Of a stretch of DNA of 64,000 bases, positions 8,517 through 23,266 are shown in pieces. Below the pieces are notes generated by a model. It saw only the letters and a program-made list of their open reading frames with translations. It made no database searches and had not been told where the DNA came from. Origin of the DNA: Bacilli bacterium (GTDB lineage: Bacteria; Bacillota_I; Bacilli_A; RFN20; CAG-826). Every line of letters starts with the position of its first letter. The stretch's first letter is position 1. A program made the translations under genes and the position numbers. The stretch lies in contig JAVBTH010000001.1 of the NCBI GenBank assembly GCA_031556235.1, positions 140,982 through 204,981 of the forward strand, read 5' to 3'.

Positions 8517-9485
8517 CTACTTTCTTAAGGCACTTAATATCTCTTGTTCTTTTTTACCTAGTTTAGCCGTAAATGTTTTTCCACTTAAATAACTAAGTGG
8601 ACCATTGATAGTCTTAAAAACTATTCTATCTGCATGTAAGAATTGTGTTTCATATTTAAAATTGACTTTAAAAAACTTATTTGTGTTAAAATCGCCGTAT
8701 TTACCATCTCCAACGACAGGATGATTAATTGCAAGCATATGTGCACGAATCTGATGTGTGCGTCCAGTAATAATCTGTACATCGAGTAACGTAAATCCTT
8801 GGAGTTGCTCTTTAGCGGAAAAAAGTGTCAACGCTTCTTGACCGTCGCGTTCATTATGAGCTACAGTAACTAATCCAGATTCAGCATCTTTTTTTAAGGG
8901 AAAATCAATTTTACCTTCGCCTTTAAGAATTCCGGCAACTAAGGTTAAATAGTGCTTTTCAATTTGATTCTTATTCTTAAAAAGTTGCAGCAATTGTTGT
9001 AACGCTTGGATATTCTTGCCGAACACCACAATTCCAGATGTATTACGATCTAATCTATGGGCTGGAGCGGGAGTAAATCCTACATCGCGTTTTGGATCAT
9101 AAACTCCGGTCGAAAATAGATAATTTAAAACCTGATTTGTCAGGGTTAAACGCTTTTCTTTTTCATCGCCATGAACTAATAAGCCTTTTGGTTTATTAAT
9201 TAAAAGAATATTATCATCTTCATAAATTATTTCATGTGTAAGTTTAACATCCTTAACTGGTCGTGGATTATTAAACTCTTCTAGTTGAGCATCAGTAATA
9301 TACACTCTTAAAACATCATCTGTTTGTAAAATATAATCAATAGTAACCCAACGTCCGTTTATTTTTACATCTTTTTTACGGAATAATTTATAAATAAAAC
9401 TTAGAGGCGCATCGTTGAGCATCTTTCGGACGTATTTATCCACACGTTGATTACATGCTTCTTTGCTAATTTGAATCTCTTTCAT
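8517..9485 (-). CDS. rluD: RluA-family (RluD/RluC-like) 23S rRNA pseudouridine synthase with N-terminal S4 domain
   Basis: HRLDRNTSG catalytic-Asp motif and an S4-like N-terminus. Confidence 0.85.
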   Translation of the reverse strand: MKEIQISKEACNQRVDKYVRKMLNDAPLSFIYKLFRKKDVKINGRWVTIDYILQTDDVLRVYITDAQLEEFNNPRPVKDVKLTHEIIYEDDNILLINKPKGLLVHGDEKEKRLTLTNQVLNYLFSTGVYDPKRDVGFTPAPAHRLDRNTSGIVVFGKNIQALQQLLQLFKNKNQIEKHYLTLVAGILKGEGKIDFPLKKDAESGLVTVAHNERDGQEALTLFSAKEQLQGFTLLDVQIITGRTHQIRAHMLAINHPVVGDGKYGDFNTNKFFKVNFKYETQFLHADRIVFKTINGPLSYLSGKTFTAKLGKKEQEILSALRK

Positions 9486-9570
9486 ACTTTACCTCACTAT
9501 TTTAATATCATAGATATTATGACTTAAAATGCGCCCAATTGCAAAAACATAATGACATAAATAGTATTTC

Positions 9571-9579
9571 TTGATATAA
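9571..9579 (+). promoter_or_regulatory. Extended -10 element (TGaTATAAT) about 11 nt upstream of tRNA-Ser
   Basis: Sequence motif only. Confidence 0.3.
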
Positions 9580-9590
9580 TAACTTTCGTT

Positions 9591-9681
9591 GGAGAAATAC
9601 CCAAGTGGCTGAAGGGGCTGGCTTGGAAAGCTAGTAGGCCTGTAACAGGGCGCGGGGGTTCAAATCCCCCTTTCTCCGCCA
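9591..9681 (+). tRNA. tRNA-Ser (anticodon GGA), type II with long variable arm and encoded CCA
   Basis: Hand-folded cloverleaf: acceptor GGAGAAA/TTTCTCC, anticodon loop TTGGAAA, T-arm GGGGGTTCAAATCCCCC. Confidence 0.9.
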
Positions 9682-9753
9682 TATTGCGCTCCATACGAAC
9701 CCCAAAGTAAGGTATATTTTAAAACTTCAGGTATCATTGGCATATATTTAAAA

Positions 9754-9783
9754 AGAGAATCAATGCATTGATTCTCTTTTTTG
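9754..9783 (+). terminator. Intrinsic terminator after tRNA-Ser (agagaatcaatg/cattgattctct followed by T6)
   Basis: Perfect 12-bp stem and T-run. Confidence 0.7.
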
Positions 9784-10030
9784 CTTTATAGTGCGATTTT
9801 TTTGTTGGGGAATCGCTTAATAATCGAACATAAGCGAAATATTAACAGTTTAACGATTACTCTGAAGTTAAGATTTTACCAATACTTAAGAGATTAAAAG
9901 AAATATCTCAAGAAGAATAATTAAATATTAAAACATCAGACTAATTAAACCCCTAGATAAAATCATTGATTATTGTATAATATATACAATTATTATTTTG
10001 TTTTGTAATAATTTAGAAGGAGAAAATAAT

Positions 10031-10702
10031 ATGAGTTTATTTAGGTTTTTACAAAAAAAAGATAAACCGACTTCAAATAATAATAAACAGTTAGAAAATG
10101 AAATTAGCATATTGTATAATGCTAAAAAATATGATGAGGTAATTTCTAAGGTGATCACTTTATCTGATGTAGAGCAAGAAGTTTCTTTGAAAAACAAGCA
10201 AATGCTCGCATTATCATATTTCTATAAAACCAATTATGTAGATTCATTAGCTGTTTTTAAAGAAATTGCAAAAAAGAAAAATGATGTAGAAAGCTGGTTT
10301 AATTGTTTAAATCCATTGCTCTTGCTAAAAAAAATGCAAGAGGCAAAAGAAGTTTTTACTATAATACTTAAATTGCATAAAGGACTTAATACTCAACAAC
10401 CACGAGAGTTAGGCTTGCCTTTTATTCGATATTATTACGCTTGGGGACTTAACGACGCTGGTTTATTTGAGGAAGCATTAGAACAATTAGAAGAATTAAA
10501 AAAAGTATATATAGCATTAAGAATTACAGATGATACATTTGTATATATTCGTGGAGTTCCATTCATTTCTAATACATTGGATTTAGCTAAAAAGGTTTTT
10601 GCTGGTTTAGGAACGGACTTAGCTAAATCGAACTATCTTAGAGAATTGAAAAGTAAAGTTGATGATAATGGAAAAATACTTATTAAAGCATACGAAAACT
10701 AA
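10031..10702 (+). CDS. Hypothetical protein, probably helical-repeat (TPR-like)
   Basis: ORF 9998..10702 trimmed to the ATG preceded by GAAGGAGAAAATAAT. Confidence 0.55.
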   Translation: MSLFRFLQKKDKPTSNNNKQLENEISILYNAKKYDEVISKVITLSDVEQEVSLKNKQMLALSYFYKTNYVDSLAVFKEIAKKKNDVESWFNCLNPLLLLKKMQEAKEVFTIILKLHKGLNTQQPRELGLPFIRYYYAWGLNDAGLFEEALEQLEELKKVYIALRITDDTFVYIRGVPFISNTLDLAKKVFAGLGTDLAKSNYLRELKSKVDDNGKILIKAYEN

Positions 10703-11008
10703 ATTAGTGTGGAAGTGACGAAGATTTATTGGCGCTTTATAATCTTAATAGAAAGGTACTTTAAAAACAAATAATCAGACTATAAAATTTCTTTTTTCCA
10801 AAATTAATTTGATATCTGCTTTTTAAATTTAAAAGCAATTATAGACGCAAAACAGATTAATTAATTCCTAATGCTTCAAATGGAAACCAGCTCACTCCGC
10901 CATTTACTTCAATATAAATACACTTAAAAAGGAATCTAATGAAGTGAACCCCAAATAGTTCACAATATAAAAAAGTGGTTTTTTGATTTCTTTATTTTAT
11001 TCTAGTGA

Positions 11009-12088
11009 TTAACCTACAAAAGAGAATTCAATAGATTTAATCTCGATTATTCCTTCTTCTCGTAATTCCTGAAAATCCAACTCTAGATATTGACATAGAT
11101 TTTTCACAATCTTATTATGCTCTTCTTCTCTTATGATGCCGCCATAGTTTGAATAATAGAAGGTATATTTAACTTTGTTTGAATCTTTGCCGTATTTTTT
11201 GAAAATAGACTTAAACAAATATAAGTCTTGTAAAGAAAATGAAGAACCATAAAACGCAATTCTGTCTATATTATTCTTAAGGATATCTGCCAAAATAGGT
11301 AAATGATTCCTACGCCTCCTATCTGATTTTGTAAATAAATCAAGATCATTAGATTTTTCGGAAATACCAAAAATGATATTTGCATCACTTAATCTGCCGT
11401 GGACATTTTGTATGTTATGTGCAGAACATTTTATATCTGTATAGTTAAAGGATATTATAGATAACTCTGCTGATTTTTGTTCGTTGCGAATAGTATGCAT
11501 AAGTTCTCTTTGCGAAGAAAAATATTGTTCACTTTGCTGTGAAATCAAATAATCCTTAAATCTCTCTTCAAAAACGTTTAGCTCTTGAAAAAGGTTCTGC
11601 ATTAACTCATCTTTTGAAACTTTAACAATCTTTAGTCTGCTTCTTGCATAACCGATATCTTGCACTTGCCAATTATCATTATTATAAAAACGCTCATTCA
11701 GGAAATAAGCAAAAAGCCAATGAGGAAAGTCTTCCCTGTGCCAGGCACCAGTTCTTTGAAAAGAGTTAATTGTATTCAAAACCTCATCCCAAATTTTTGT
11801 ATCAAATGAATCTTTAATCTCCTGTTCAACATCACACCAATTATTTCCATGTAATTTTTCTGATTTGGTCAGGAAGAGCAAATCCCAAACCGTAAAATCA
11901 ATGCTTTTAACGGCACTCATAACCGCATATTTTTGTTTTTCTTTAATCCCAACGTATATGTTGGAATTAAGAAAATCTTTATAGTCTTTTCTTTTTTTTG
12001 AATTTTCAAAAAAGTCATCATATGAAGATTTTAAACCACATTGTAAATCAAATCCATTTCCAATAATAAGCAATAATTTGTTTGCCAT
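11009..12088 (-). CDS. AbiH-like abortive-infection protein (N-terminal LLLIIGNGFDLQCGL motif)
   Basis: The GNGFD N-terminal motif and ~350-aa size are characteristic of the AbiH family; GGAGGG SD. Confidence 0.6.
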   Translation of the reverse strand: MANKLLLIIGNGFDLQCGLKSSYDDFFENSKKRKDYKDFLNSNIYVGIKEKQKYAVMSAVKSIDFTVWDLLFLTKSEKLHGNNWCDVEQEIKDSFDTKIWDEVLNTINSFQRTGAWHREDFPHWLFAYFLNERFYNNDNWQVQDIGYARSRLKIVKVSKDELMQNLFQELNVFEERFKDYLISQQSEQYFSSQRELMHTIRNEQKSAELSIISFNYTDIKCSAHNIQNVHGRLSDANIIFGISEKSNDLDLFTKSDRRRRNHLPILADILKNNIDRIAFYGSSFSLQDLYLFKSIFKKYGKDSNKVKYTFYYSNYGGIIREEEHNKIVKNLCQYLELDFQELREEGIIEIKSIEFSFVG

Positions 12089-12283
12089 AAGAATCCCTCC
12101 AAAACCTCTACAAGAATAGTAGTTAAATTTACTTCATATAAATTAATAAAATTCTAATTAAAAAATATAATCGCTTTTATTTTTTTTGCATTGCTTGTCG
12201 TAAAACCGACTCTTTAAAAAAACGATAGCAACTAACTCAACTAAGTTAAGTTTTCTTCAAGTTTATTTTCATTTTTTATTAAT

Positions 12284-12976
12284 CTATTTTATTGGCAAGA
12301 TCTTTTCAGCTTCTCTCGTTTCATAAATCATTTCAATCCAATGAACAGTAAGTCTAATTAGTCTTTTCAAATCTTCAATGTCTTTATCTGCAAACTTCTG
12401 AACATAATGAGTTTGATCATTTCCTAGCCAAACTGCACGACTTGCGGCAGTTTTCAAATTTGGGTCATTAACATATTCTTTAATACATTGACCTAATTGT
12501 GAGTTTTCAATTTTATCTTTTTTATCAGGATTTTCCTTTATAGAAAAATCTTTTATTAAAAACTCTAGAGCTTTTCTATAACCAATTCCCGCTATTTCAG
12601 TTAATTTGTAACTTTCAGAGGCTAAAGATTGATTAAAAATATTTACAAAGTCAGATGAAACTTCTTTAATAAAATCAGAAAAAATTGATTGCTCTGGTCT
12701 AACAGGGTCAAGAGACAACTGAATAGATGTATACCCTGTGAAATTGCCATTGAGATTAGTATTTCTAATTAATTTATTGTTAGCAATAAATGGATCGTAA
12801 CATTTTGTACAAAGATAGCAAATGCAGAGAAACTGATCTCCAGCAGTGTTCTTAAAATGCTTAACATTAAGTATACTAGGCTTTAGATTACACTTACAAA
12901 TTGGACATTTTTCCGGTTCTTCTACTACAACAGACGACGTTGAATTATCCAAATTAAAATTTACTCTTTCTTTCAT
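12284..12976 (-). CDS. Zinc-ribbon (CxxC x2) plus DUF4145-like domain protein
   Basis: CPICKC...CTKC cluster at the N-terminus; C-terminal AASRAVWLGNDQTHY resembles the DUF4145 core; start set at the ATG behind a GAGGTGA SD. Confidence 0.55.
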   Translation of the reverse strand: MKERVNFNLDNSTSSVVVEEPEKCPICKCNLKPSILNVKHFKNTAGDQFLCICYLCTKCYDPFIANNKLIRNTNLNGNFTGYTSIQLSLDPVRPEQSIFSDFIKEVSSDFVNIFNQSLASESYKLTEIAGIGYRKALEFLIKDFSIKENPDKKDKIENSQLGQCIKEYVNDPNLKTAASRAVWLGNDQTHYVQKFADKDIEDLKRLIRLTVHWIEMIYETREAEKILPIK

Positions 12977-13017
12977 TATTATCACCTCATTATTTTGAAA
13001 GTACATCCATCAACTAG

Positions 13018-13668
13018 TCACACAGCCTTCGTTTTTTTATTTGCCAAATCTATGATTTCATCATTCAATTCATTTATGCACTTAACCACATTTTGCTCTT
13101 TCTCGTAGAAAACCCAATTGCAAATTGTGTATAAATCATCATCAATGTCGAGTTCATAATATAATGAAATTCTTAAAATACATTGACCAAAGATAATCCT
13201 AAGTTCTACAAGAGCTCTTAAAATAATTATAGCAGCTCTTTCACTTATAGAAGGCATATCACAATAGGAATCTACAAGATTTTTAGATGCTAATTCATTA
13301 TAAAAATCTCTACAAGCTTTTCTCATAGTTTGAATGTTTGCTAGTAATACAGCATCAGTTGCTAAAAAGGATTTTTCAGTTAAAAAATCTCTAATATGTC
13401 TAATAGATATAACACAATGTCTTTCTTCAATTATTGCACAATCTATATAAAGCGCTCTTTTATCTTCAAGAAATCTAATAATTTCTCTAGCAAGTTGCCG
13501 CTGATTTGATTTATTATTCCACGTTATTCCAAATAAAGGAGTGCTTATCCCATTTATTGATCGAACTTTTTCAAAAATATCTTTGAATTTCACTTTTCTT
13601 CCCCCTATACTAATTTTATCTGCATCAATATCATAATGCAACACTATTTTTCTCATCCTTTTCATCAC
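13018..13668 (-). CDS. Hypothetical 216-aa protein, upstream partner of the DUF4145 gene
   Basis: ORF track; 41-nt gap to the downstream gene on the same strand. Confidence 0.55.
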   Translation of the reverse strand: MMKRMRKIVLHYDIDADKISIGGRKVKFKDIFEKVRSINGISTPLFGITWNNKSNQRQLAREIIRFLEDKRALYIDCAIIEERHCVISIRHIRDFLTEKSFLATDAVLLANIQTMRKACRDFYNELASKNLVDSYCDMPSISERAAIIILRALVELRIIFGQCILRISLYYELDIDDDLYTICNWVFYEKEQNVVKCINELNDEIIDLANKKTKAV

Positions 13669-13689
13669 AAATATTCATCTATAAAAAAT

Positions 13690-13732
13690 ACAGTGCCAAA
13701 TTATGTTTACAGTGCCAAAAAAATGGTATAAT
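13690..13732 (+). promoter_or_regulatory. Two direct repeats ACAGTGCCAAA (13690-13700, 13709-13719) followed by an extended -10 (TGgTATAAT, 13724-13732), upstream of fic
   Basis: Exact 11-nt direct repeat and TGnTATAAT read in the sequence. Confidence 0.35.
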
Positions 13733-13755
13733 ATAAATGTAAAGGGGTGTTCAAA

Positions 13756-14769
13756 ATGAGCGTCTTTGATGAATACAAGAAACTTGGAGAACCAAGCAAA
13801 AACGAAAAGGCGGCGATTTGGGAAACCGCAATAGGATTACAAGAAGTTGATGGTCTCACTCCTTCATCATATTTAATAGAAACAGCAAAAAATCATATTG
13901 AAGGTTCCATTACAATAACTGAAGTAAAAACGCGTCTTGAAGAGTACTATACAAAACATGATAACCGCAATGAAATTGAAAAGCGTACAGAGGAAGCCGA
14001 CAAAGTCTCAAGTCGGATTGCGGAGATATTATCAGAAAAGGCTTTCACATTTTCTCCTGCTGAGTACATTACAATTCATAAGAGACTCTTTCATGAAATA
14101 TACGAATTTGCTGGTAAAATTAGAGACTATAATATTTCAAAAAAAGAATGGGTATTAAATGGAGATTCAGTATATTATGCATCTGCAGATAGTATTAATG
14201 CCACACTCAATTATGATTTTGCTATTGAAAAAGAGTTTGATTATTCAAAAATATCAAAGGAAGAAATAATCGACCATATTTCTAGATTTATTTCAAACAT
14301 ATGGCAAATCCACCCTTTTGGAGAGGGAAATACGCGTACTACTGCAGTTTTTGCGATTAAGTATTTGCGCAAGCTTGGCTTTCATGTGAGCAATGAATTA
14401 TTTGCAAATAATTCATGGTATTTTAGAAATGCTCTTGTTCGCGCTAACTATTCTTTTGCGGATCACGGTATTTACGCAACAACAAAATATCTTAATCTCT
14501 TTTTTGAAAATCTAATATTAAAGAAAAATAATGTTTTAAAGAACAGAACAATGCAAATAGATTTTGGCACCGTAAATCAACAACATGACACTGCAAATGG
14601 CACTGTATTTGACTTAATTAAAAGTAATAATTCAATTACTGCCATGGAAATAGCTCAGCAACTAGAAATAAGTTTGCGCACTGTAAAGCGCAGAATAAAA
14701 GAGCTTAAAGAAATAGGACTTATGGAAAGAATTGGGTCGGATAAAAATGGAAGTTGGAAAATAAAATAA
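13756..14769 (+). CDS. Fic/Doc-family protein with a degenerate Fic motif (HPFGEGNTRTTA) and a C-terminal winged-helix HTH
   Basis: HPFxEGN core; C-terminal HTH (SITAMEIAQQLEISLRTVKRRIKELKE); start set at the ATG behind an AAGGGGTG SD. Confidence 0.8.
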   Translation: MSVFDEYKKLGEPSKNEKAAIWETAIGLQEVDGLTPSSYLIETAKNHIEGSITITEVKTRLEEYYTKHDNRNEIEKRTEEADKVSSRIAEILSEKAFTFSPAEYITIHKRLFHEIYEFAGKIRDYNISKKEWVLNGDSVYYASADSINATLNYDFAIEKEFDYSKISKEEIIDHISRFISNIWQIHPFGEGNTRTTAVFAIKYLRKLGFHVSNELFANNSWYFRNALVRANYSFADHGIYATTKYLNLFFENLILKKNNVLKNRTMQIDFGTVNQQHDTANGTVFDLIKSNNSITAMEIAQQLEISLRTVKRRIKELKEIGLMERIGSDKNGSWKIK

Positions 14770-14775
14770 CTTCAC

Positions 14776-14802
14776 AAAAAAACTCCCAATTGGGAGTTTT
14801 TA
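14776..14802. terminator. Bidirectional terminator (palindrome aactcccaattgggagtt flanked by A/T runs)
   Basis: Perfect 18-nt palindrome between convergent genes. Confidence 0.7.
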
Positions 14803-14825
14803 AACTATTAAATTCTTTAAAGAAA

Positions 14826-15422
14826 TTAAAGTTTTGCAAATCTACTTTTAAAATCATTAAGCGGTATAGTAACAGTTATAGTTTCTTTCGCGCTTGCTTT
14901 TGAAAATTCAAAAGTATAAGTAAAATCACTTGTAATATCAACAATCATCTTCTTTGGCTTATTACCCACGATAGCAAAATGATGCATCGTAAATGTTTCG
15001 CCTTCTTTTTTATTTTCTTCAAAGTAAGTTTGAGTCTCACCTTTATTGTTGTATGGAACAACAGTTCCGGAGATGGTTCCTCCTAACTCACCATTTTCTA
15101 TCTTAATGCCTGCGTCCAAGGCATTTTGAGGATCACCAATTAGCCATCCGTCAGTTGGCGATAACTTATGTTGAAGACTATCAAGTACAAATTCTTCTTC
15201 AACATTTTTGCTAATCGTCACTGAAACCACATACCACATAAGTGTTGTCGTATTTGATTCTTTATATTTAATAACTGAATTAGACAAAATCGTAAGAGTT
15301 GGAAGCCCTTGAGTTCCCATCGCCGTAAATTTTTCCTTACCACCACTACCTCCACAAGCTGTCACACAAACGGCAGTTGCAGCACAGGCAAATAATAACC
15401 CTGCAAATTTAAATTTTTTCAT
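14826..15422 (-). CDS. Lipoprotein (signal peptide plus lipobox VTAC)
   Basis: MKKFKFAGLLFACAATAVCVTACGGSGG. Confidence 0.75.
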   Translation of the reverse strand: MKKFKFAGLLFACAATAVCVTACGGSGGKEKFTAMGTQGLPTLTILSNSVIKYKESNTTTLMWYVVSVTISKNVEEEFVLDSLQHKLSPTDGWLIGDPQNALDAGIKIENGELGGTISGTVVPYNNKGETQTYFEENKKEGETFTMHHFAIVGNKPKKMIVDITSDFTYTFEFSKASAKETITVTIPLNDFKSRFAKL

Positions 15423-15644
15423 TTTTTCTCCCTTTAGAAATCGTCGATTTCTCTATTTATCCGTTTAATCGCGGAATACGAACATATGCTATCACTTACA
15501 AGATAATTATGCAATTACAAAATTATTAATGACCATATATTAATTCTTTTATAGTTGTAAATATTTCATCCAATCAAAAACACCCAAATTATTACGATGG
15601 GTGTTTAAGAATTTATATATTATAAATTGAATCTCTTACTAAAA

Positions 15645-16190
15645 TTATTTATCTTTTGTAAAGATGCCTTTTGCGGCATAAACCATTGGTATAACTGCAA
15701 AGATAAGCATATTAACGATTGATCCATAAATATTTGCAGTAAGTGTAAATTGGTTAGCATCTAACATACTAATGAATTGTTCTTTAGTAATGTTTCCGAT
15801 TGCTGGGATAGCAACGCCTGATGGCAATGCTTCAGCGGTCTTGTAGCCTGTTGTAATTTGATCTTGCGCATAATTTGTGTAAGCAGATCCATTAGTGAAA
15901 CTTAATATAGCAAAGACAAGCGCAATAACTGCAATTGTCATTAAAACATAGTTATTAATTTTTTTGCATTTTTCAATTGTTCCCAAAGTGCAAAAACTGA
16001 GTAATCCCACAAAGAATAGTTCTTGTGCAATTAGCATAAAGAACTTACTATTAGCAACTTTATCAGTGTACTCTCCTAATGTCACATCTTTAACAATGCC
16101 ATTTGATAAAAGTATTGTTGTTAATATAAGACCTACTAGGGCTACAACACCCATCGCAATTTTTGCCCAATGTTTTTCGATTAATTTCAT
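15645..16190 (-). CDS. Hypothetical membrane protein
   Basis: ORF trimmed to the Met behind AGGAGGAG; several TM segments. Confidence 0.55.
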   Translation of the reverse strand: MKLIEKHWAKIAMGVVALVGLILTTILLSNGIVKDVTLGEYTDKVANSKFFMLIAQELFFVGLLSFCTLGTIEKCKKINNYVLMTIAVIALVFAILSFTNGSAYTNYAQDQITTGYKTAEALPSGVAIPAIGNITKEQFISMLDANQFTLTANIYGSIVNMLIFAVIPMVYAAKGIFTKDK

Positions 16191-16300
16191 AACTTCTCCT
16201 CCTTTCATCTTATGCAAATATTGCAAAAGACAATTAGAGTATACTCCGCAGATATTGCGAAGTCAATCACTTAGTTAGTTAAACTAATTAATCTTGTATT

Positions 16301-16756
16301 TCATTCTAGTTGCGAGTCATTAAACAACTCGTTTAAGGTCTTAAGACCTTTATACATAACCTCTCGCTCTGTATCTGTGAGGTTTTTACAAACATTATCC
16401 ACCATTTTTTTGTGAAAATTAATATGCTCTTCATTGATTCTCTGTCCAAGTAATGTTAATTGCACAAAAGTGTTTCTAGCATCATTTTCGCATTTCTTCT
16501 TGCTTAAGTATCCCGATGCGACTAGTTTATTTACCATCACGGTGACACTTGCTAATGTAATATCAAACTTTTTTGCAATTTTACTAATTGTAATGGCATC
16601 GTCTTCACTAACTAATTCTATGAGGTGCATTTCGCGCATCGATAAGCTAGCTAATGTAACTTTATTAATCAACTTCATTTCTGTTTTTAATATATTGTGA
16701 AAAGTATCCACTAAAAGTAAGTTAAACTCCTCAATAAATTTTGAATTATAATCCAT
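16301..16756 (-). CDS. MarR-family transcriptional regulator
   Basis: Winged-helix MarR signature region. Confidence 0.8.
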   Translation of the reverse strand: MDYNSKFIEEFNLLLVDTFHNILKTEMKLINKVTLASLSMREMHLIELVSEDDAITISKIAKKFDITLASVTVMVNKLVASGYLSKKKCENDARNTFVQLTLLGQRINEEHINFHKKMVDNVCKNLTDTEREVMYKGLKTLNELFNDSQLE

Positions 16757-16845
16757 AAGTGTTCCTCCACCTTATTATCTTTTTCATTATAACAAAAAAA
16801 CCACAAAACAATTGAACACTTTCAGACTAAATTTCAACCAATATT

Positions 16846-18891
16846 TTACCGATTAATGGTTTCATAGATACTTTTCGCTAACTGTTTCCAATCAGTGTCC
16901 TTATTTATAATAAACTTTTCGACATGGGAGTCTTTGCTTTGAACTTCAAAAACATCCCATCCAAATGTAATTATATTTCCATTAAAGTCATAAAGAAAAT
17001 GATCATTGTATCTACCGTGGTTTTCATCGAAATGCACCATCCCTGGTTTAATTATATTTAATTCGTATTCTAACACACATAAATGCACCTCATATATACG
17101 TCCCTTAGGTTGCTTATTTGGTATTAAAAAATAATTATCATCGCTATATAAAGGAGATTGACAAAATCTAAGGTGAGTCTCACTCATTGTTTTAAAGAGA
17201 TGTGGATAGTATATCATACAAAACCGCCAGTCATTAGAATCAATTACGTAACTAGTAATGATCTCTTCATAGTTTTTACCACTTAACAACTCATTTATAA
17301 GTGTTCTAACGATAGAACTATTTTGAGAGAATAGCTTCATTATACTAGGGGTCTTAGCTTGAACACTGTTATAATCAGGAAAAAAAGTCATCAAGTCTTC
17401 TGTCCTACCAGCTGATGTAGTGTAATCACCTATTGACAATAAAGCTCTCCTTAAACTCAATCCATCCTTAGGCCCCTTATCGTTAAAAATGTCTTCAATA
17501 ATTTTCCAGTTTCTTACGAAAATATCTGAGCAATAATTATTATTTTCATCCATTGAAATATATAACCCGCAACGAATTTGTCCGCGAAAATATGGTTGCT
17601 TTTCAGCATGATAAATTTGATCATTAAACTTCTCATTGCCTCCTAAGATTATATTAGCCTTTACTTGCTCTTCTTTGAATTGTTCTTTATCGAAAACAAA
17701 TACTTCATTTTTACTAATAAATTCTAATAAGTCTTTCGTATGAGTCGACAAATTATTAATTCCGAGAATAACTTTTTGAAACGTATCTTCTTTGTCAGTA
17801 AGAGAATTCTTAATGAGATTTTTTAATACTCTAAACCACTGAAAGAAATCTTTCTCCTCTACTAAGCCTTCATTATTGTACAAATACTGCGTCACGGCGT
17901 GTAATAATGCAAAATGTTCATTACTGGAGTCAATTTCTCCTACACAGGTTATGATTGATTTATACTCATCACTTATATTTTCATCACATAAAAAATCGAA
18001 CGTGTATTTTAGTATATCAAAAAAATTCTTATCAATCTTTTTATACCATTTACTGCTGACATTAAAGTTTTTCTCACTATAAGAAACATAATCATAATTA
18101 ACTAAAACATTACGTAAAAGTTTTAACAACACATCATCCGTATTTTCTTTATACTTATCCCAAAAATAATCTAGCCATTTACCATCAATGTTTATCTCAA
18201 AATCTTTACGATTTTGATACTTTAAAACAATCATTTGGTGAGACAAAATAGCCTTGAAGTTTTCATATTGAGTAAGCATTTTTCCTCGTGCATTAAGCTT
18301 GATATACAGACTATCCTCCATCCCTAGTTTTTCCATTTCTAAAAACTCAAAAACAACTTTATTGCCTATAAGAGCGCTTTTCAGTTTTTCTTCTTCTATT
18401 CCACCAAAAATAGTAACAATTTTTTCAAAAACTGCTATGGCAGATTGTACAGTTGGGTCAAACTCCCATCCATTTATAAACCATTCAGCGTCTAAAATAA
18501 AATCTCTAAATCTTTCTGACGAGAATACTATTTTTCTTTTTTCAACAATTCTTTTAAAGAATTCTCTAGAACTTATTCTTGTCTCATATGTAAACTTACT
18601 CAGCAATGATGTTTTCGTATCATCATTTCTAAAAGCAAAAATATTTAGCAAAAACAAAGTTGTAAGCCTTTGCTGCCCGTCAACTGGAACGAACCTATCA
18701 TTTTGTAACTTTCCATAAACAAAATTAAGATTAAGAGTATTTCCCTCGATAGCTGAAAAAATATCGTTAAGCAAATTATCACATACTACTTGTGCGTGCT
18801 TATCTTTTCGACCTTGTACATAGTCCCTTTGAATAATTGGGATTTCAATGGTATAATCATTTAATAATCCCATGAAACTTTTTTGCGCCAT
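16846..18891 (-). CDS. DUF262 (ParB-like nuclease/NTPase, DGQQRLTT motif) protein, 681 aa, with an unassigned C-terminal region and no clear DUF1524/HNH motif
   Basis: IQRDYVQ...VDGQQRLTTLFLL at the N-terminus; ATG at 18891 lies 1 nt after the stop of the upstream gmrSD-like gene. Confidence 0.7.
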   Translation of the reverse strand: MAQKSFMGLLNDYTIEIPIIQRDYVQGRKDKHAQVVCDNLLNDIFSAIEGNTLNLNFVYGKLQNDRFVPVDGQQRLTTLFLLNIFAFRNDDTKTSLLSKFTYETRISSREFFKRIVEKRKIVFSSERFRDFILDAEWFINGWEFDPTVQSAIAVFEKIVTIFGGIEEEKLKSALIGNKVVFEFLEMEKLGMEDSLYIKLNARGKMLTQYENFKAILSHQMIVLKYQNRKDFEINIDGKWLDYFWDKYKENTDDVLLKLLRNVLVNYDYVSYSEKNFNVSSKWYKKIDKNFFDILKYTFDFLCDENISDEYKSIITCVGEIDSSNEHFALLHAVTQYLYNNEGLVEEKDFFQWFRVLKNLIKNSLTDKEDTFQKVILGINNLSTHTKDLLEFISKNEVFVFDKEQFKEEQVKANIILGGNEKFNDQIYHAEKQPYFRGQIRCGLYISMDENNNYCSDIFVRNWKIIEDIFNDKGPKDGLSLRRALLSIGDYTTSAGRTEDLMTFFPDYNSVQAKTPSIMKLFSQNSSIVRTLINELLSGKNYEEIITSYVIDSNDWRFCMIYYPHLFKTMSETHLRFCQSPLYSDDNYFLIPNKQPKGRIYEVHLCVLEYELNIIKPGMVHFDENHGRYNDHFLYDFNGNIITFGWDVFEVQSKDSHVEKFIINKDTDWKQLAKSIYETINR

Positions 18892-18892
18892 T

Positions 18893-20440
18893 TTATTCCC
18901 CGCCTTTTTCAACAAATTGATTTATCATGTCCGCAAATGATTCAATATAGTCAGATTTATCAATATCTGTCCATTTATCCATTTGAGATTTCGTTATATC
19001 TTTTGTATACGCTTTAAGAAAAATATTCCTTGTGCAGAGCGGAAGAAATCTTCCATCTTTTCCGTATTGATTAATTATGACATTTCTTTTTTTATCAAAC
19101 GGTGAATCCTTACAACCTCGGTTAAGATCCGAGGATAATAAAGTAAGATTTCCTAAACTATCATCTTCCTCTTGCGTACCATCCGCACTAGCATGTATAT
19201 GATCGATATCCCACTTACCTTTTTTATATAACTTAAATGGAAATCTTGTCTCTTTAGCACTTTTACAATACAAAGTCGCAATGTTAAATAATAACAGCAT
19301 ATAACGTACTTTCTCTTTCTCGTCATAAGTTAGATTTGCTAATTTATCTCTTTCACTACAAAAACTTTTGTGCGTTTTTATTTTTTTAAATAATATTTTT
19401 GATACATCACTTTTTTTCTTTCCGGACAACTCTAACAAAAGCCTTCTCATATCTTCGCCTCTATCAATAACAAACCCAATCAGGTGATAATTGTCTACAT
19501 CATCGTACCAATAACATAAATCTCCATATAATTTTTCTATATCGTTCCAAAATGAAATTATGTATTCTTTTTTGCTGGGTATATCATTCATTTTTTTCGA
19601 AAAAGTTAAATAAGACCGACGACTATCGCTTTGAAGATTTTTGTCTAAGTATTTAGGTTGTAATGACAAAATGTCAAATAACACATCAATTCTTGTTCCA
19701 GTTTCATTTTCATCTGCATTGATTTCATTGTTAAAATAAGACCAAAAGTTATCATCTTGTAATCTCTGTTCTATCTTATCCCAAGATATAGAAATCTCTT
19801 TTTGTATAGCACCACTGTCAATTCCAAGATTGTCTTTGCTCAAAAGCAAAGCTTTAATAAGTTCTGCGTTAGTGAGTGGAATTTTTCCTAAATTCACTTT
19901 TTCAAACATTTCTATTGGCTGAACTTCTTCAGATATTTCGTACCAAATAAAAACTACACTCTTAAGAAATTTCGATACAATATCCCATAACACAACATTG
20001 GATGATGTTTTCTCTTTTGCAGCTAATTCCCGTGTCCACTCATTTATTACTTTTCGAGTAGAAGTTATGTGAAAATAATCTATATTACTATCATCGATTT
20101 CGCCATCTTCCTTTAATACGGTTAAGAATTCTTCACTGTTTTTTCTTGTATCAAAGGACAAGATAAACGGCTTAACGGATAGCTGCGTCGCAGTTTTTAG
20201 CAAAATAAATATCGTAGTTAGACGTTGTTGCCCGTCAACCACTTCCCATCTTTCACCTTTTTCCTTTACTATTAATGGTTGAATACAATATTCTAATGTT
20301 CCACCCTTCGTGTCAAACTCGTAAACGTCATCAAGCAATTCAACTACTTCTTTTTTTGTCCATCTGTAACCTCGTTGATACGAAGGAATAAAAAAAGACT
20401 TATCTAAAAGTTCACCAATTTTTACTACTTTTACTGACAT
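18893..20440 (-). CDS. GmrSD-family type IV restriction endonuclease-like protein (DUF262 plus DUF1524 His-Me finger)
   Basis: YQRGYRWTK...VVDGQQRLTTIFILL at the N-terminus; C-terminal WDIDHIHA...GNLTLL...N. Confidence 0.75.
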   Translation of the reverse strand: MSVKVVKIGELLDKSFFIPSYQRGYRWTKKEVVELLDDVYEFDTKGGTLEYCIQPLIVKEKGERWEVVDGQQRLTTIFILLKTATQLSVKPFILSFDTRKNSEEFLTVLKEDGEIDDSNIDYFHITSTRKVINEWTRELAAKEKTSSNVVLWDIVSKFLKSVVFIWYEISEEVQPIEMFEKVNLGKIPLTNAELIKALLLSKDNLGIDSGAIQKEISISWDKIEQRLQDDNFWSYFNNEINADENETGTRIDVLFDILSLQPKYLDKNLQSDSRRSYLTFSKKMNDIPSKKEYIISFWNDIEKLYGDLCYWYDDVDNYHLIGFVIDRGEDMRRLLLELSGKKKSDVSKILFKKIKTHKSFCSERDKLANLTYDEKEKVRYMLLLFNIATLYCKSAKETRFPFKLYKKGKWDIDHIHASADGTQEEDDSLGNLTLLSSDLNRGCKDSPFDKKRNVIINQYGKDGRFLPLCTRNIFLKAYTKDITKSQMDKWTDIDKSDYIESFADMINQFVEKGGE

Positions 20441-20527
20441 ATTTTTCCCCTTTGACTACGATTATAACAAAAAAAGCAGACTTAGTCATTGCTATGTCCA
20501 CTTTATTTGTTTTTTAAATTTAAATTA

Positions 20528-23266
20528 CTATTCTGATCTTAAGGCCACGACTGGATCCTTTTTAGCCGCGGATCTCGATGGGATTAGACCTGAGATCGTT
20601 GTTAAAAGAATACTTATTAGCATCATTGTAGCTGCATAACTTATTGGGAATTTTGCAATTGCAATACCGGTTAAGCCGTATACAATTAAGTTTATCAGCG
20701 CAGATAGTGCGTAAGTCACAGTAATACCAATCACGCCAGAGGCAAACCCAATCATGAAGGTTTCAGCGTTAAATAATCGAGAAACGTCTTTTTTACGTCC
20801 CCCTAACGAACGAATAACACCGATTTCTTTGATGCGTTCAACAACTGAAACATATGTGATGATTGCAATCATGACACATGAGACCACTAGAGCTAGTGAG
20901 GTAAAACCGACAAGAGCAATTGTTATAATGTTAATGAGACTATCAATCGTAGAAATAATTACTGCTAGATTATCCGTATAAGTAATAACATTTCTATCTT
21001 CATGTTGAACGACAACCCCATTAATTTCTAATGGAATATCTTCATTCCATTGATCTAAGTATTTGGTTACATTATCTTTTAAATCAAAGTTAGTTGGATA
21101 AATTGATATTTCATCTGGCAGAATAGATCCACCAAGTTGTTGCAATGTAATTGTATATGATTCTGGCATTTCTCCACCCATCATACTGCCAATCATACTT
21201 TCAATCATATTTGTTTTACCAATAAGACCAGTTTGAGTATATGTTGTAGAGTTATAGGAATAGTGATAATCATAAGTAATACCAGTTAAGATACTTCCTT
21301 TATAAGTTGTTCCTTGAAAGCCATCAAGCCCCGCGGTTGAAAGTGTAGTAACTATTTCGGAATTAATGTTTGTTTCGATGATTTTATCCGCTAAAGCTTC
21401 AGTATAGAAGAATCCACTTTGTAGTGCTCCAAAGTTTACAGTGCTCTTTGGTTGTAAAATACCAACAATTTTTAAAGGTAGTTTGCTAGCTTCAAAAGAA
21501 GCATCTGAGTAAGCTTTATAGGTAAATGGTCGAGTTTCTTGCAACATTGGAATCGTTTGTGCGGCAAATACTGTATCATTTGGATACCAATTGAATTCTC
21601 TTCCAAGCAATTCATCGTAAGTAAAGATTTCTTTATCCAAGTCTTTATCGTAATTGTCAACGTCATTACCAGCTTTTGCAATTAAGTTAACGAATTCATC
21701 TTGTGTGTAATACCCAAGTTGGGCAAGAAGTAAGTCAGTCAATAAGCTTCCTTTTTCAAGAACAATCATTACTTCATCTTCTTCGGTAGCAAATTTACCT
21801 TCCATGATGTCATATTGACTTAAAATATAATCTTCATTATTTGGTGATTGCATGAAGACATCACTGAGAGTCGTGATTAATGATGCATAATCGCTATAAG
21901 GAGTTTGTTTTAAAATTGAAGTATAAACAGTTCTCATCGCGCTTAGCGACATGTTTTCAACTGTACCACCTTCGCCAGTGAAATCAGTGTATATATTGTT
22001 TGTAATATCAATACCATAGTTGAAATAAATTGCCGCGGCATCTTCACTTGAAATACCTTTGACAAAATCAACATATTCTTGAGTGATTTCATTACTAATC
22101 ATCATTCCATCGGTCACTGTCGCGCGTTCGACAAGCATATCGATTAAAGAATCGACACCTATTTCTCTAGCCGCGGTTGTGGTTTGAATTTTTTCGCCAA
22201 TTGTCATCCCGTCCATCATCGCACTTAAATCTAAAGCAGTCTTGGAAATCTTAATTGGATATCCTGAAAGCATATCATTTTGCATGGTGTCTATATAAGA
22301 TTGGATACCATATGATATTGAAAGAACAAGCGAGACACCGATAATACCGATTGATCCCGCGATACTTGTCATAATTGTTCGCGCTTTTTTTGAGACTAAA
22401 TTATTTAAAGAAAGTCTAAAAGCAGTCCAGAAAGACATTTTAGCTTTCTCTTTTTTTGCAACACCAGTTTGTTTAAATTCTTCTTCAGCAATTTTTCTTA
22501 AAGCAGCATTTCTTTTCGCGGTATCTAATTTTTCAATTTTCAAATTGTAAGGATTACTATCGGAAAGTAATTCTCCGTCTAATAATTTAATAATTCTTGT
22601 TGAGTATTTTTCAGCTAACTCAGGGTTATGAGTAACCATGATGACGAGTTTTTCATGAGCAATTTCTTTAATAATTTCCATGATTTGAATAGAAGTTTCA
22701 GTATCAAGCGCTCCGGTTGGCTCATCTGCTAGTAATATTTCTGGATCATTAACTAACGCTCTTGCAATCGCAACACGTTGGCATTGTCCACCCGATAGTT
22801 GGTTAGGACGTTTATAATATTGATCAGTAAGTCCTACTCTATCTAAAGCTAGTTTAGCCTTCTTTTGGCGTTCAGATTTACTTAACCCCGCAATAGTAAG
22901 TGCCAATTCGACGTTACCCAAAACAGTTTGGTGAGGAATCAAGTTATAACTTTGGAAAATAAAACCTACGCGGTGATTACGGTAAACATCCCAATCTCTA
23001 TCGACAAATTCAGCAGTACTTCTGCCTGAAATTGAAAGATTTCCACTGGTGTATTTATCAAGACCACCAATGATGTTTAATAAAGTGGTTTTACCACATC
23101 CGCTTGGACCTAAAATTGAGACAAATTCGTTTTCTCTAAAAGCAAGATTAATTCCTTTTAACGCGTGAACTTCACTGTCGGCAACTTTATAATCCTTAAT
23201 AATGTCTTCTAATCTTAGCATATTTTTATCCTCCTTTACACTATCGTTTTTGACATTGACTATCAT
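20528..23266 (-). CDS. Fused ABC transporter: ATP-binding domain plus MacB/FtsX-type permease (912 aa)
   Basis: Walker [15 protein letters not shown] signature, C-terminal FtsX-like 4-TM domain. Confidence 0.8.

Follow-up and report, generated by a model that had tools for sequence, protein, structure and literature searches.

We analysed a 64,000-nucleotide stretch of contig JAVBTH010000001.1 (the window) from an uncultured Erysipelotrichales genome, with a focus on the 2.66 kb at positions 11,009 to 13,668, which a first-pass annotation made from the sequence alone had flagged for an AbiH-like gene lying beside a zinc-ribbon/DUF4145 protein and an unassigned reading frame. We consider it likely that these 2.66 kb are part of an accessory defence hotspot that starts right after a tRNA-Ser(GGA) gene, and that the three genes they carry, all on the minus strand, are independent single-gene defence modules that are adjacent by chance. 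The modules represent kinds described in recent years: a zinc-ribbon/HEPN protein that is RAZR-like, a DUF6650 protein without a partner, and an AbiH/SIR2-like protein. This reading builds on the family membership and domain layout of the proteins, their conservation patterns, the failure of the families to co-occur and the accessory character of the island, all established below for the following features.

9591..9681 (+): tRNA-Ser(GGA) gene, the conserved boundary of the variable island (ARAGORN; Rfam tRNA, 55 bits)
9682..20527 (no strand): accessory defence island, ~10.8 kb (Pfam and PADLOC matches)
11009..12088 (-): AbiH-family gene, 359 amino acids (aa) (PF14253)
12089..12283 (-): AT-rich spacer of 195 nt between the zinc-ribbon/DUF4145 and AbiH genes (sequence)
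12284..12976 (-): zinc-ribbon plus DUF4145 (HEPN-type) gene, 230 aa (phrog_1305, PF13643)
12704..12976 (-): its N-terminal Cys4 zinc-ribbon domain, residues 1-91, six beta-strands (cysteine conservation, AlphaFold2 (AF2) model)
12287..12676 (-): its C-terminal helical DUF4145/HEPN-type domain, residues 101-230 (80-member alignment, AF2 model)
13018..13593 (-): standalone DUF6650 gene, probably 191 aa from the GTG at 13593, with the mechanical open reading frame (ORF) extending to 13668 (PF20355)

A zinc-ribbon/DUF4145 family with the architecture of RAZR

The mechanical ORF of the zinc-ribbon/DUF4145 gene starts at 13006, and the best start within it is the ATG at 12976, which is preceded by the Shine-Dalgarno (SD) sequence GAGGTGA and gives a product of 230 aa with a gap of 41 nt to the stop of the upstream ORF at 13018; the protein length, the gap and the CxxC...CxxC zinc ribbon (CPIC, CTKC) all agree with the first-pass annotation. 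The protein matches phrog_1305 over its full length (9e-43). The DUF4145 domain proposed for it holds up under profile search, just over the threshold (PF13643, 2.9e-5, 24.5 bits against a cutoff of 23.1), and the assignment is backed by the 40 of 80 family members that match PF13643 at E ≤ 1e-3, as well as by source annotations. DUF4145 was classed as a HEPN family, zinc-ribbon fusions included, in 2013 (PMC3710099).

Homologues fall into 658 clusters of a large protein database, and 303 loci were found in species-representative genomes from at least six phyla (Bacillota, Bacteroidota, Pseudomonadota, Acidobacteriota, Saccharibacteria and others), with further copies in 48 phage records, mostly of temperate Streptococcus phages, and on plasmids. 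The gene for the closest homologue (52% identity) stands by itself in a prophage lysogeny module, between repressor and integrase, and so do those of the Streptococcus phages. Neighbour censuses, by clustering and by Pfam/PADLOC, covered the 79 genomic loci at which the gene was recovered, and the only recurrent neighbour is an XRE/cI-type helix-turn-helix (HTH) protein (18/79 loci by clustering, 9/71 by Pfam); the other neighbours include integrases, IS110 transposases, HsdR, McrBC, AbiEii, PIN and housekeeping genes.

Conservation is uneven along the protein, the mean top-residue fraction being 0.29 in the zinc domain versus 0.63 in the C-terminal helical domain. Within the former, the zinc-ribbon cysteines (C24 and C27 of CPIC, C56 and C59 of CTKC) show no variation among 47 homologues and are conserved to at least 90% among 80, and within the latter R134, K135, E138, K142, W183, N186, D187, H190 and K204 are invariant in the 80-member alignment. 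The segment AASRAVWLGNDQTHY corresponds to residues 177-191, and the codon of H190 lies at 12407-12409. The AF2 model is confident (predicted local distance difference test score (pLDDT) 94.5) and comprises a beta domain of six strands (residues 2-91) and, after it, a helical domain (101-224). We presume the N-terminal zinc ribbon, as the variable part, to be a sensing domain; its profile matches the zinc ribbons of RPB9 weakly (E about 0.09), RPB9 being an analogue that has also been cited for RAZR.

RAZR (formerly PD-T7-4; E. coli UMB1727, RRL46918.1, about 219 aa) is a single-gene abortive-infection RNase (Zhang et al., Nature 2026, PMC13017515; Vassallo et al. 2022, PMC9519451). Its zinc-finger domain, which is its most variable part and sets specificity, binds ring-forming phage proteins, upon which the DUF4145 (divergent HEPN) domain cleaves single-stranded RNA with the catalytic residues R146 and H154, the Arg lying eight residues ahead of the His (PMC13017515). 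The two proteins are alike in being encoded by a single gene of ~220-230 aa with an N-terminal Cys4 ribbon and then a C-terminal DUF4145 domain, in having an invariant HEPN-motif His and a zinc domain more variable than the rest, in being autonomous single genes (no conserved partner in 79 loci of the window family), and in occurring on mobile elements in both Gram-positive and Gram-negative bacteria. By analogy with RAZR, the most likely mechanism is that the fast-evolving zinc-ribbon domain would recognise a phage protein and activate the HEPN-type domain (invariant N186-x3-H190), which would then cleave RNA, shut down translation and so abort infection. Here and for the other two modules, every biochemical step (RNase, NADase, ligand binding, abortive phenotype) is one that we infer.

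Several results weigh against so close a parallel. Compared with RAZR by the latter's published features, the window protein has no detected sequence similarity beyond the shared Pfam domain, its zinc domain spans ~91 aa and six strands against ~65 aa in RAZR, and the position equivalent to R146 (H-8) is V, A or T across the window family. None of the 80 family members matches a PADLOC model, in version 2.0.0, which we take to contain a model for PD-T7-4. Sequence-profile searches of the PDB returned only weak zinc-finger/RPB9 matches, none of them significant, and a Foldseek search of the PDB with the predicted model returned nothing meaningful, although these PDB negatives carry little weight, since it is chiefly the variable zinc domain that is resolved in the deposited RAZR models. 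The conserved basic residue nearest to H190 is R180 (H-10; R or K in 91%), and R134 is invariant, so that any agreement with the active-site geometry of RAZR is putative. None of these comparisons yielded a direct sequence or structure link to RAZR, and we therefore word our reading as a protein that works like RAZR and has the same architecture, not as a proven homologue.

Three DUF4145 proteins are validated defence effectors, namely RAZR, BxaP (PMC10799925) and Ishtar (Ishtar1, bioRxiv 10.64898/2026.07.06.735840). BxaP, Ishtar1 and DS-38 resemble the window protein in that a DUF4145 or HEPN domain is the presumed effector of a single-gene defence, but in BxaP and Ishtar1 the DUF4145 domain is N-terminal and is followed by a HEAT-like or beta/alpha C-terminal domain. 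In DS-38 (HEP2) the HEPN domain is N-terminal and the zinc fingers are C-terminal, and we rejected it as an analogue on account of this reversed domain order.

A standalone DUF6650 protein

The gene upstream of the zinc-ribbon/DUF4145 gene had been labelled a 216-aa unknown, a label that does not stand, as the protein matches Pfam DUF6650 (PF20355, 35.3 bits against a cutoff of 27, residues 38-178) with no other Pfam match in the protein, and also matches phrog_29952 (2.6e-21). An exhaustive search recovered 570 representatives of the family at E ≤ 1e-3, typically 155-175 aa long, whose N-termini correspond to residue ~26 of the ORF; when 12 sequences were aligned, the majority of homologues opened with MKF opposite V26-K27-F28. 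Because homologues start at V26 and the GTG at 13593 is preceded by GGGGGA, the product is probably 191 aa. The first 25 codons of the 216-aa ORF (13594-13668) are probably untranslated, which would make the public gene call of 215 aa too long.

Against a family hidden Markov model (HMM) built from 124 sequences the window protein scores 162 bits, and it retains the family-conserved residues W50, R71, R93, R116 and R157, the first three of which are invariant. It forms a singleton cluster, with ~30-40% identity to its relatives; among the genes adjoining these relatives are integrases, a P2-type tail sheath gene, which DUF6650 precedes, and a GmrSD-HNH gene. We collected 94 DUF6650 loci, of which 14 are viral and 80 metagenomic, the metagenomic scan having used 12 sequences. 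The 80 closest metagenomic relatives have 110 immediate neighbours between them, of which seven are XRE/CapH-type HTH proteins and the rest are assorted, with no TIR or ThsB protein; likewise, no TIR or SMEK domain was found by Pfam and PADLOC among the eight island proteins scanned.

The domain is known from two defence systems. In type VI Thoeris, a TIR protein makes 2'-cyclic ADP-ribose (2'cADPR), which triggers the DUF6650 effector ThsG, modelled as a hexameric tube (bioRxiv 10.64898/2025.12.03.692087), and DS-27 'SMEK' (WP_087896215.1; PMC13092281, DefensePredictor) is a validated single-gene anti-phage system with a C-terminal DUF6650 domain. The window protein is like ThsG in consisting of a DUF6650 domain of ~160 aa that is accompanied by neither another domain nor transmembrane helices, and in keeping the conserved basic residues. 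It differs from the type VI system in having no TIR gene adjacent or in the island, and its closest relatives likewise lack TIR neighbours; a response to 2'cADPR is putative for this protein. With DS-27 it shares the character of a single-gene system containing DUF6650, but DS-27 is 299 aa long and fuses a SMEK domain at its N-terminus to DUF6650 at 169-292, whereas the window protein is DUF6650 alone. It is probably a standalone copy of a ThsG-type domain that would act alone or answer a signal made elsewhere, since there is no TIR partner here. The lack of TIR neighbours among its relatives suggests that this DUF6650 subfamily normally works without an adjacent TIR.

In the viral contigs (L087-L100), several prophage DUF6650 genes are directly preceded on the same strand by ORFs of 124-249 aa without a Pfam match (e.g. 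L087 434-808, L088 4515-4988, L091 4416-5000 and L098 4197-4946), which may be unrecognised partners.

Neighbours or a unit, and alternative explanations

The first-pass annotation had treated the DUF6650 and zinc-ribbon/DUF4145 genes as a two-gene unit, and had also stated that this unit has no functional assignment. The latter is outdated, as a zinc finger with DUF4145 is the architecture of RAZR/PD-T7-4 and DUF6650 is both the ThsG effector domain and the C-terminal domain of DS-27; the former is contradicted by the genomic distribution of the two families. The 124-sequence DUF6650 HMM, run over the ORFs of the 79 genomic zinc-ribbon/DUF4145 loci, found nothing at E ≤ 1, and the zinc-ribbon/DUF4145 HMM found no member in any of the 14 viral or 80 metagenomic DUF6650 loci; nor did the neighbour censuses yield a conserved operon partner for either family. 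Judged by locus content, the two genes are neighbours and not a unit, both families consisting mostly of lone genes in prophage lysogeny modules or defence islands.

What speaks against mere adjacency is a property of this genome only, in that the two genes are 41 nt apart with no terminator called, which permits their co-transcription. They could be taken for a functional two-gene system, in which DUF6650 would serve, for example, as regulator, antitoxin or ligand sensor of the HEPN RNase and be transcribed from a promoter region shared with the neighbouring Fic gene, and both domains are indeed defence-associated, with the genes on the same strand, an SD sequence between them and no convincing promoter or terminator in the gap. 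We nevertheless hold such a system to be highly improbable, given that family HMMs searched from both sides find the two together in 0/173 loci, that each family is overwhelmingly found alone, and that the DUF6650 protein is a singleton (~30-40% identity to relatives), whereas zinc-ribbon relatives with 52% identity occur without DUF6650. The DUF6650 protein might instead be an orphan or trans-acting Thoeris-type effector that awaits 2'cADPR from a TIR protein encoded elsewhere, the remnant of a decayed type VI Thoeris system, or a signal sponge. Here the absence of TIR among the scanned island proteins and among the 110 neighbours of the closest metagenomic relatives has to be set against the facts that DUF6650 is the 2'cADPR-responsive ThsG domain with W50, R71, R93, R116 and R157 kept here, that TIR genes sit at the same tRNA-Ser hotspot in two relatives, and that phage-borne DUF6650 copies exist, and on balance we find it unlikely.

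For the zinc-ribbon/DUF4145 protein, the alternative to an RNase defence effector is a nucleic-acid-binding or regulatory protein of prophage type, with a catalytically altered HEPN-like domain. phrog_1305 does carry the PHROG label 'DNA binding protein', but this is an unvalidated annotation, and while members of the family often adjoin cI/XRE repressors, they are also found outside prophages, beside restriction-modification, McrBC, AbiE and PIN genes. A Gly at the canonical HEPN Arg position (H-5) and the lack of a basic residue at the RAZR-equivalent H-8 would fit altered catalysis; against this, the N-x3-H core is invariant across phyla, as are several charged residues, and the three validations of DUF4145 defence effectors (RAZR, BxaP, Ishtar) speak for the effector role, leaving the regulatory alternative quite improbable in our view. 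A bolder extension of the RAZR-like reading, which we would call distinctly unlikely, is that phrog_1305 proteins of this kind form a distinct and widespread class of RAZR-like sensor-RNases, with a larger zinc-ribbon sensor and a rearranged active site, that annotation tools have missed, and that standalone DUF6650, separately, defends as a single gene independently of TIR or is carried by phages as a cADPR sponge; in its most adventurous version, DUF6650 would gate the HEPN RNase at this locus.

The AbiH gene

The AbiH-like ORF is as the first-pass annotation described it, with an N-terminal IIGNGFD motif (seen as LLIIGNGFD), its own SD sequence (GGAGGG, 6 nt ahead of the ATG) and a 195-nt upstream region, and the family assignment is borne out by PF14253, which matches the 359-aa protein at residues 6-305 (7e-23, 82.4 bits, well above the cutoff of 30.9) over profile positions 1-255 of 260. 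Homologues on 48 plasmids of Enterococcus, Lactiplantibacillus, Listeria and Lactococcus, annotated 'AbiH family protein' by NCBI, align with 92-94% coverage at ~30% identity, and the motifs G10-N-G-F-D14, S213-F-N-Y-T217 and N228-x-H230-G231 are invariant in four divergent members. With lactococcal AbiH (Prevots et al. 1996) the window protein shares the full-length Pfam match, the GNGFD, FNYTD and HG motifs, and the setting of a lone gene on mobile or accessory DNA; its identity to the annotated AbiH proteins of lactic acid bacteria is only ~30%, and the mechanism of AbiH itself is putative. No NCBIfam model matches the AbiH, zinc-ribbon/DUF4145 or DUF6650 protein.

AbiH has been described as SIR2-like ('SIRim'; PMC13064643 and bioRxiv 10.1101/2024.09.18.613514), and because of this description we propose NAD+ depletion, the window protein being most likely, by analogy, a lone abortive-infection effector that would deplete NAD+ on infection. 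The structural comparisons did not reproduce a SIR2 fold: the single-sequence AF2 model is unusable (pLDDT 37), and the AbiH profile searched against the PDB returned only dihydrofolate reductase noise. From its sequence, then, the gene is a lone abortive-infection candidate with a predicted phenotype.

As a partner of either other family AbiH was rejected, since it adjoins the zinc-ribbon/DUF4145 gene in 1/71 loci and DUF6650 in 0/94. The single case, in Prevotella sp. JUN01a (L076 5965-7751), has a zinc-ribbon/DUF4145 gene followed 129 nt on by an AbiH-family gene (Pfam 6e-28) on the same strand, which is the order seen in the window. The 195-nt spacer between the two genes in the window does not fold more stably than shuffled sequences (z = -0.96), and RNA elements, arrays and a structured spacer were ruled out, with Rfam detecting the tRNA only and no tandem repeat in the spacer.

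The tRNA-Ser hotspot

The window organism is poorly sampled, its RluA-family, AbiH, zinc-ribbon/DUF4145 and DUF6650 proteins all being singletons at 90% clustering; the nearest RluA-family homologues (60-66% identity) come from Erysipelotrichales/Bacilli metagenome-assembled genomes. Five relatives share with the window a stretch of ~10 syntenic genes to one side of the RluA-family gene and tRNA-Ser, encoding proteins of 171, ~360 and 229 aa, phosphoglucomutase, a HAD hydrolase, TrpS, ArsC, CYTH, NAD kinase, PTS-EIIB, Maf and RNase J. In four of these relatives the tRNA-Ser(GGA) and RluA-family genes are ~100 nt apart, and in the fifth insertions have displaced the tRNA gene by 2.4 kb. Beyond the tRNA the content differs from genome to genome (a DNA methylase fusion with or without HTH-Fic; TIR_2 and a transposase; two TIR proteins with kinase-like and decarboxylase-like genes; metabolic genes), nucleotide similarity among the loci drops to background directly 3' of the tRNA, and none of 11 island proteins has a homologue in the relatives' flanks. 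Because relatives are syntenic on one side and different in every genome on the other, we take the island to be accessory, in agreement with the earlier suggestion of a variable, defence-enriched stretch after tRNA-Ser.

The shift in G+C content (GC) is small, 30.4% in the island compared with 32.2-32.6% in the flanks. An integrated tRNA element (prophage, integrative and conjugative element, or genomic island) was considered and rejected, there being no integrase among the island proteins and no att-like repeat in 9400-21500. On this evidence the region is a recombination hotspot or defence island and not a recognisable integrated element.

Two of the relatives' loci, L183 (6526-9557) and L184 (478-3686), have an identical RluA-family protein yet differ by an HTH_26-Fic gene beside a DNA_methylase/N6_N4_Mtase fusion, which shows strain-level turnover at the hotspot. 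At the same site, a further Erysipelotrichales relative (L186 2771-8097) has two TIR_2 proteins interleaved with guanylate-kinase-like, aminotransferase and Orn/DAP-decarboxylase-like genes and an rve transposase, and another (L185 5356-7359) has TIR_2 with Vpar_1526; both may be uncharacterised TIR systems.

Other elements of the island

In addition to the three genes discussed, the island contains an orphan TPR-like ORF, a Fic-HTH gene, a lipoprotein, a membrane protein, a MarR gene and two GmrSD-type genes, and two further features were located in its non-coding sequence.

9750..9781 (+): 14-bp perfect hairpin and T-run, a terminator-like site, probably the tRNA terminator and the start of variable DNA
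13689..13718 (-): two copies of TTGGCACTGTA, a candidate operator between the DUF6650 and Fic-HTH genes

Contigs of the same sample in Logan (ends of L001 and L101) stop around the hairpin at 9750-9781, probably through an assembly break at the palindrome. For the 234-aa ORF that directly follows tRNA-Ser (9998-10702, +), no family match reached significance, the one hint being TPR_6 at E = 0.06, and at 27.7% its GC is the lowest of the island.

The Fic and GmrSD genes mentioned in the first-pass annotation are both present. The Fic gene, which carries a C-terminal winged HTH (13747-14769, +), matches the PADLOC candidate system PDC-S72 (5e-130), and a weak VbhA-antitoxin-like stretch at residues 27-64 of its product points to an intramolecular inhibitory helix. 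Between the divergent Fic-HTH and DUF6650 genes, TTGGCACTGTA occurs twice exactly, 19 nt apart start to start, and its second copy overlaps the -35-like TTGGCA of a promoter-like site at 13699-13670, the only such site upstream of DUF6650; given their position, the repeats may be a candidate operator for the HTH domain of the Fic protein. The two GmrSD-type genes (16846-20440, -) overlap by 23 nt; their products are 689 aa long, with GmrSD_N only, and 515 aa long, where GmrSD_N is joined by GmrSD_C/HNH. Of the two, only the 515-aa protein is matched by PADLOC models (HEC-06, Orf5, SspE-like), and together the genes possibly form a two-gene restriction module against modified DNA.

Implications

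To a specialist the locus holds no surprise, being an ordinary defence island built from recently described parts, and its tRNA-Ser(GGA) site beside the RluA-family gene offers a usable landmark when the poorly sampled Erysipelotrichales are mined for defence genes. The standalone state of the closest DUF6650 relatives, which are not partners of a TIR, points to a role for the ThsG domain beyond Thoeris. If the zinc-ribbon/DUF4145 family works like RAZR, the reach of that mechanism would be greatly widened, to 303 loci in at least six phyla and many temperate Streptococcus phages, with 0 of 80 members annotated as defence by PADLOC, and the hypervariable zinc domain would amount to a natural library of phage-protein sensors.

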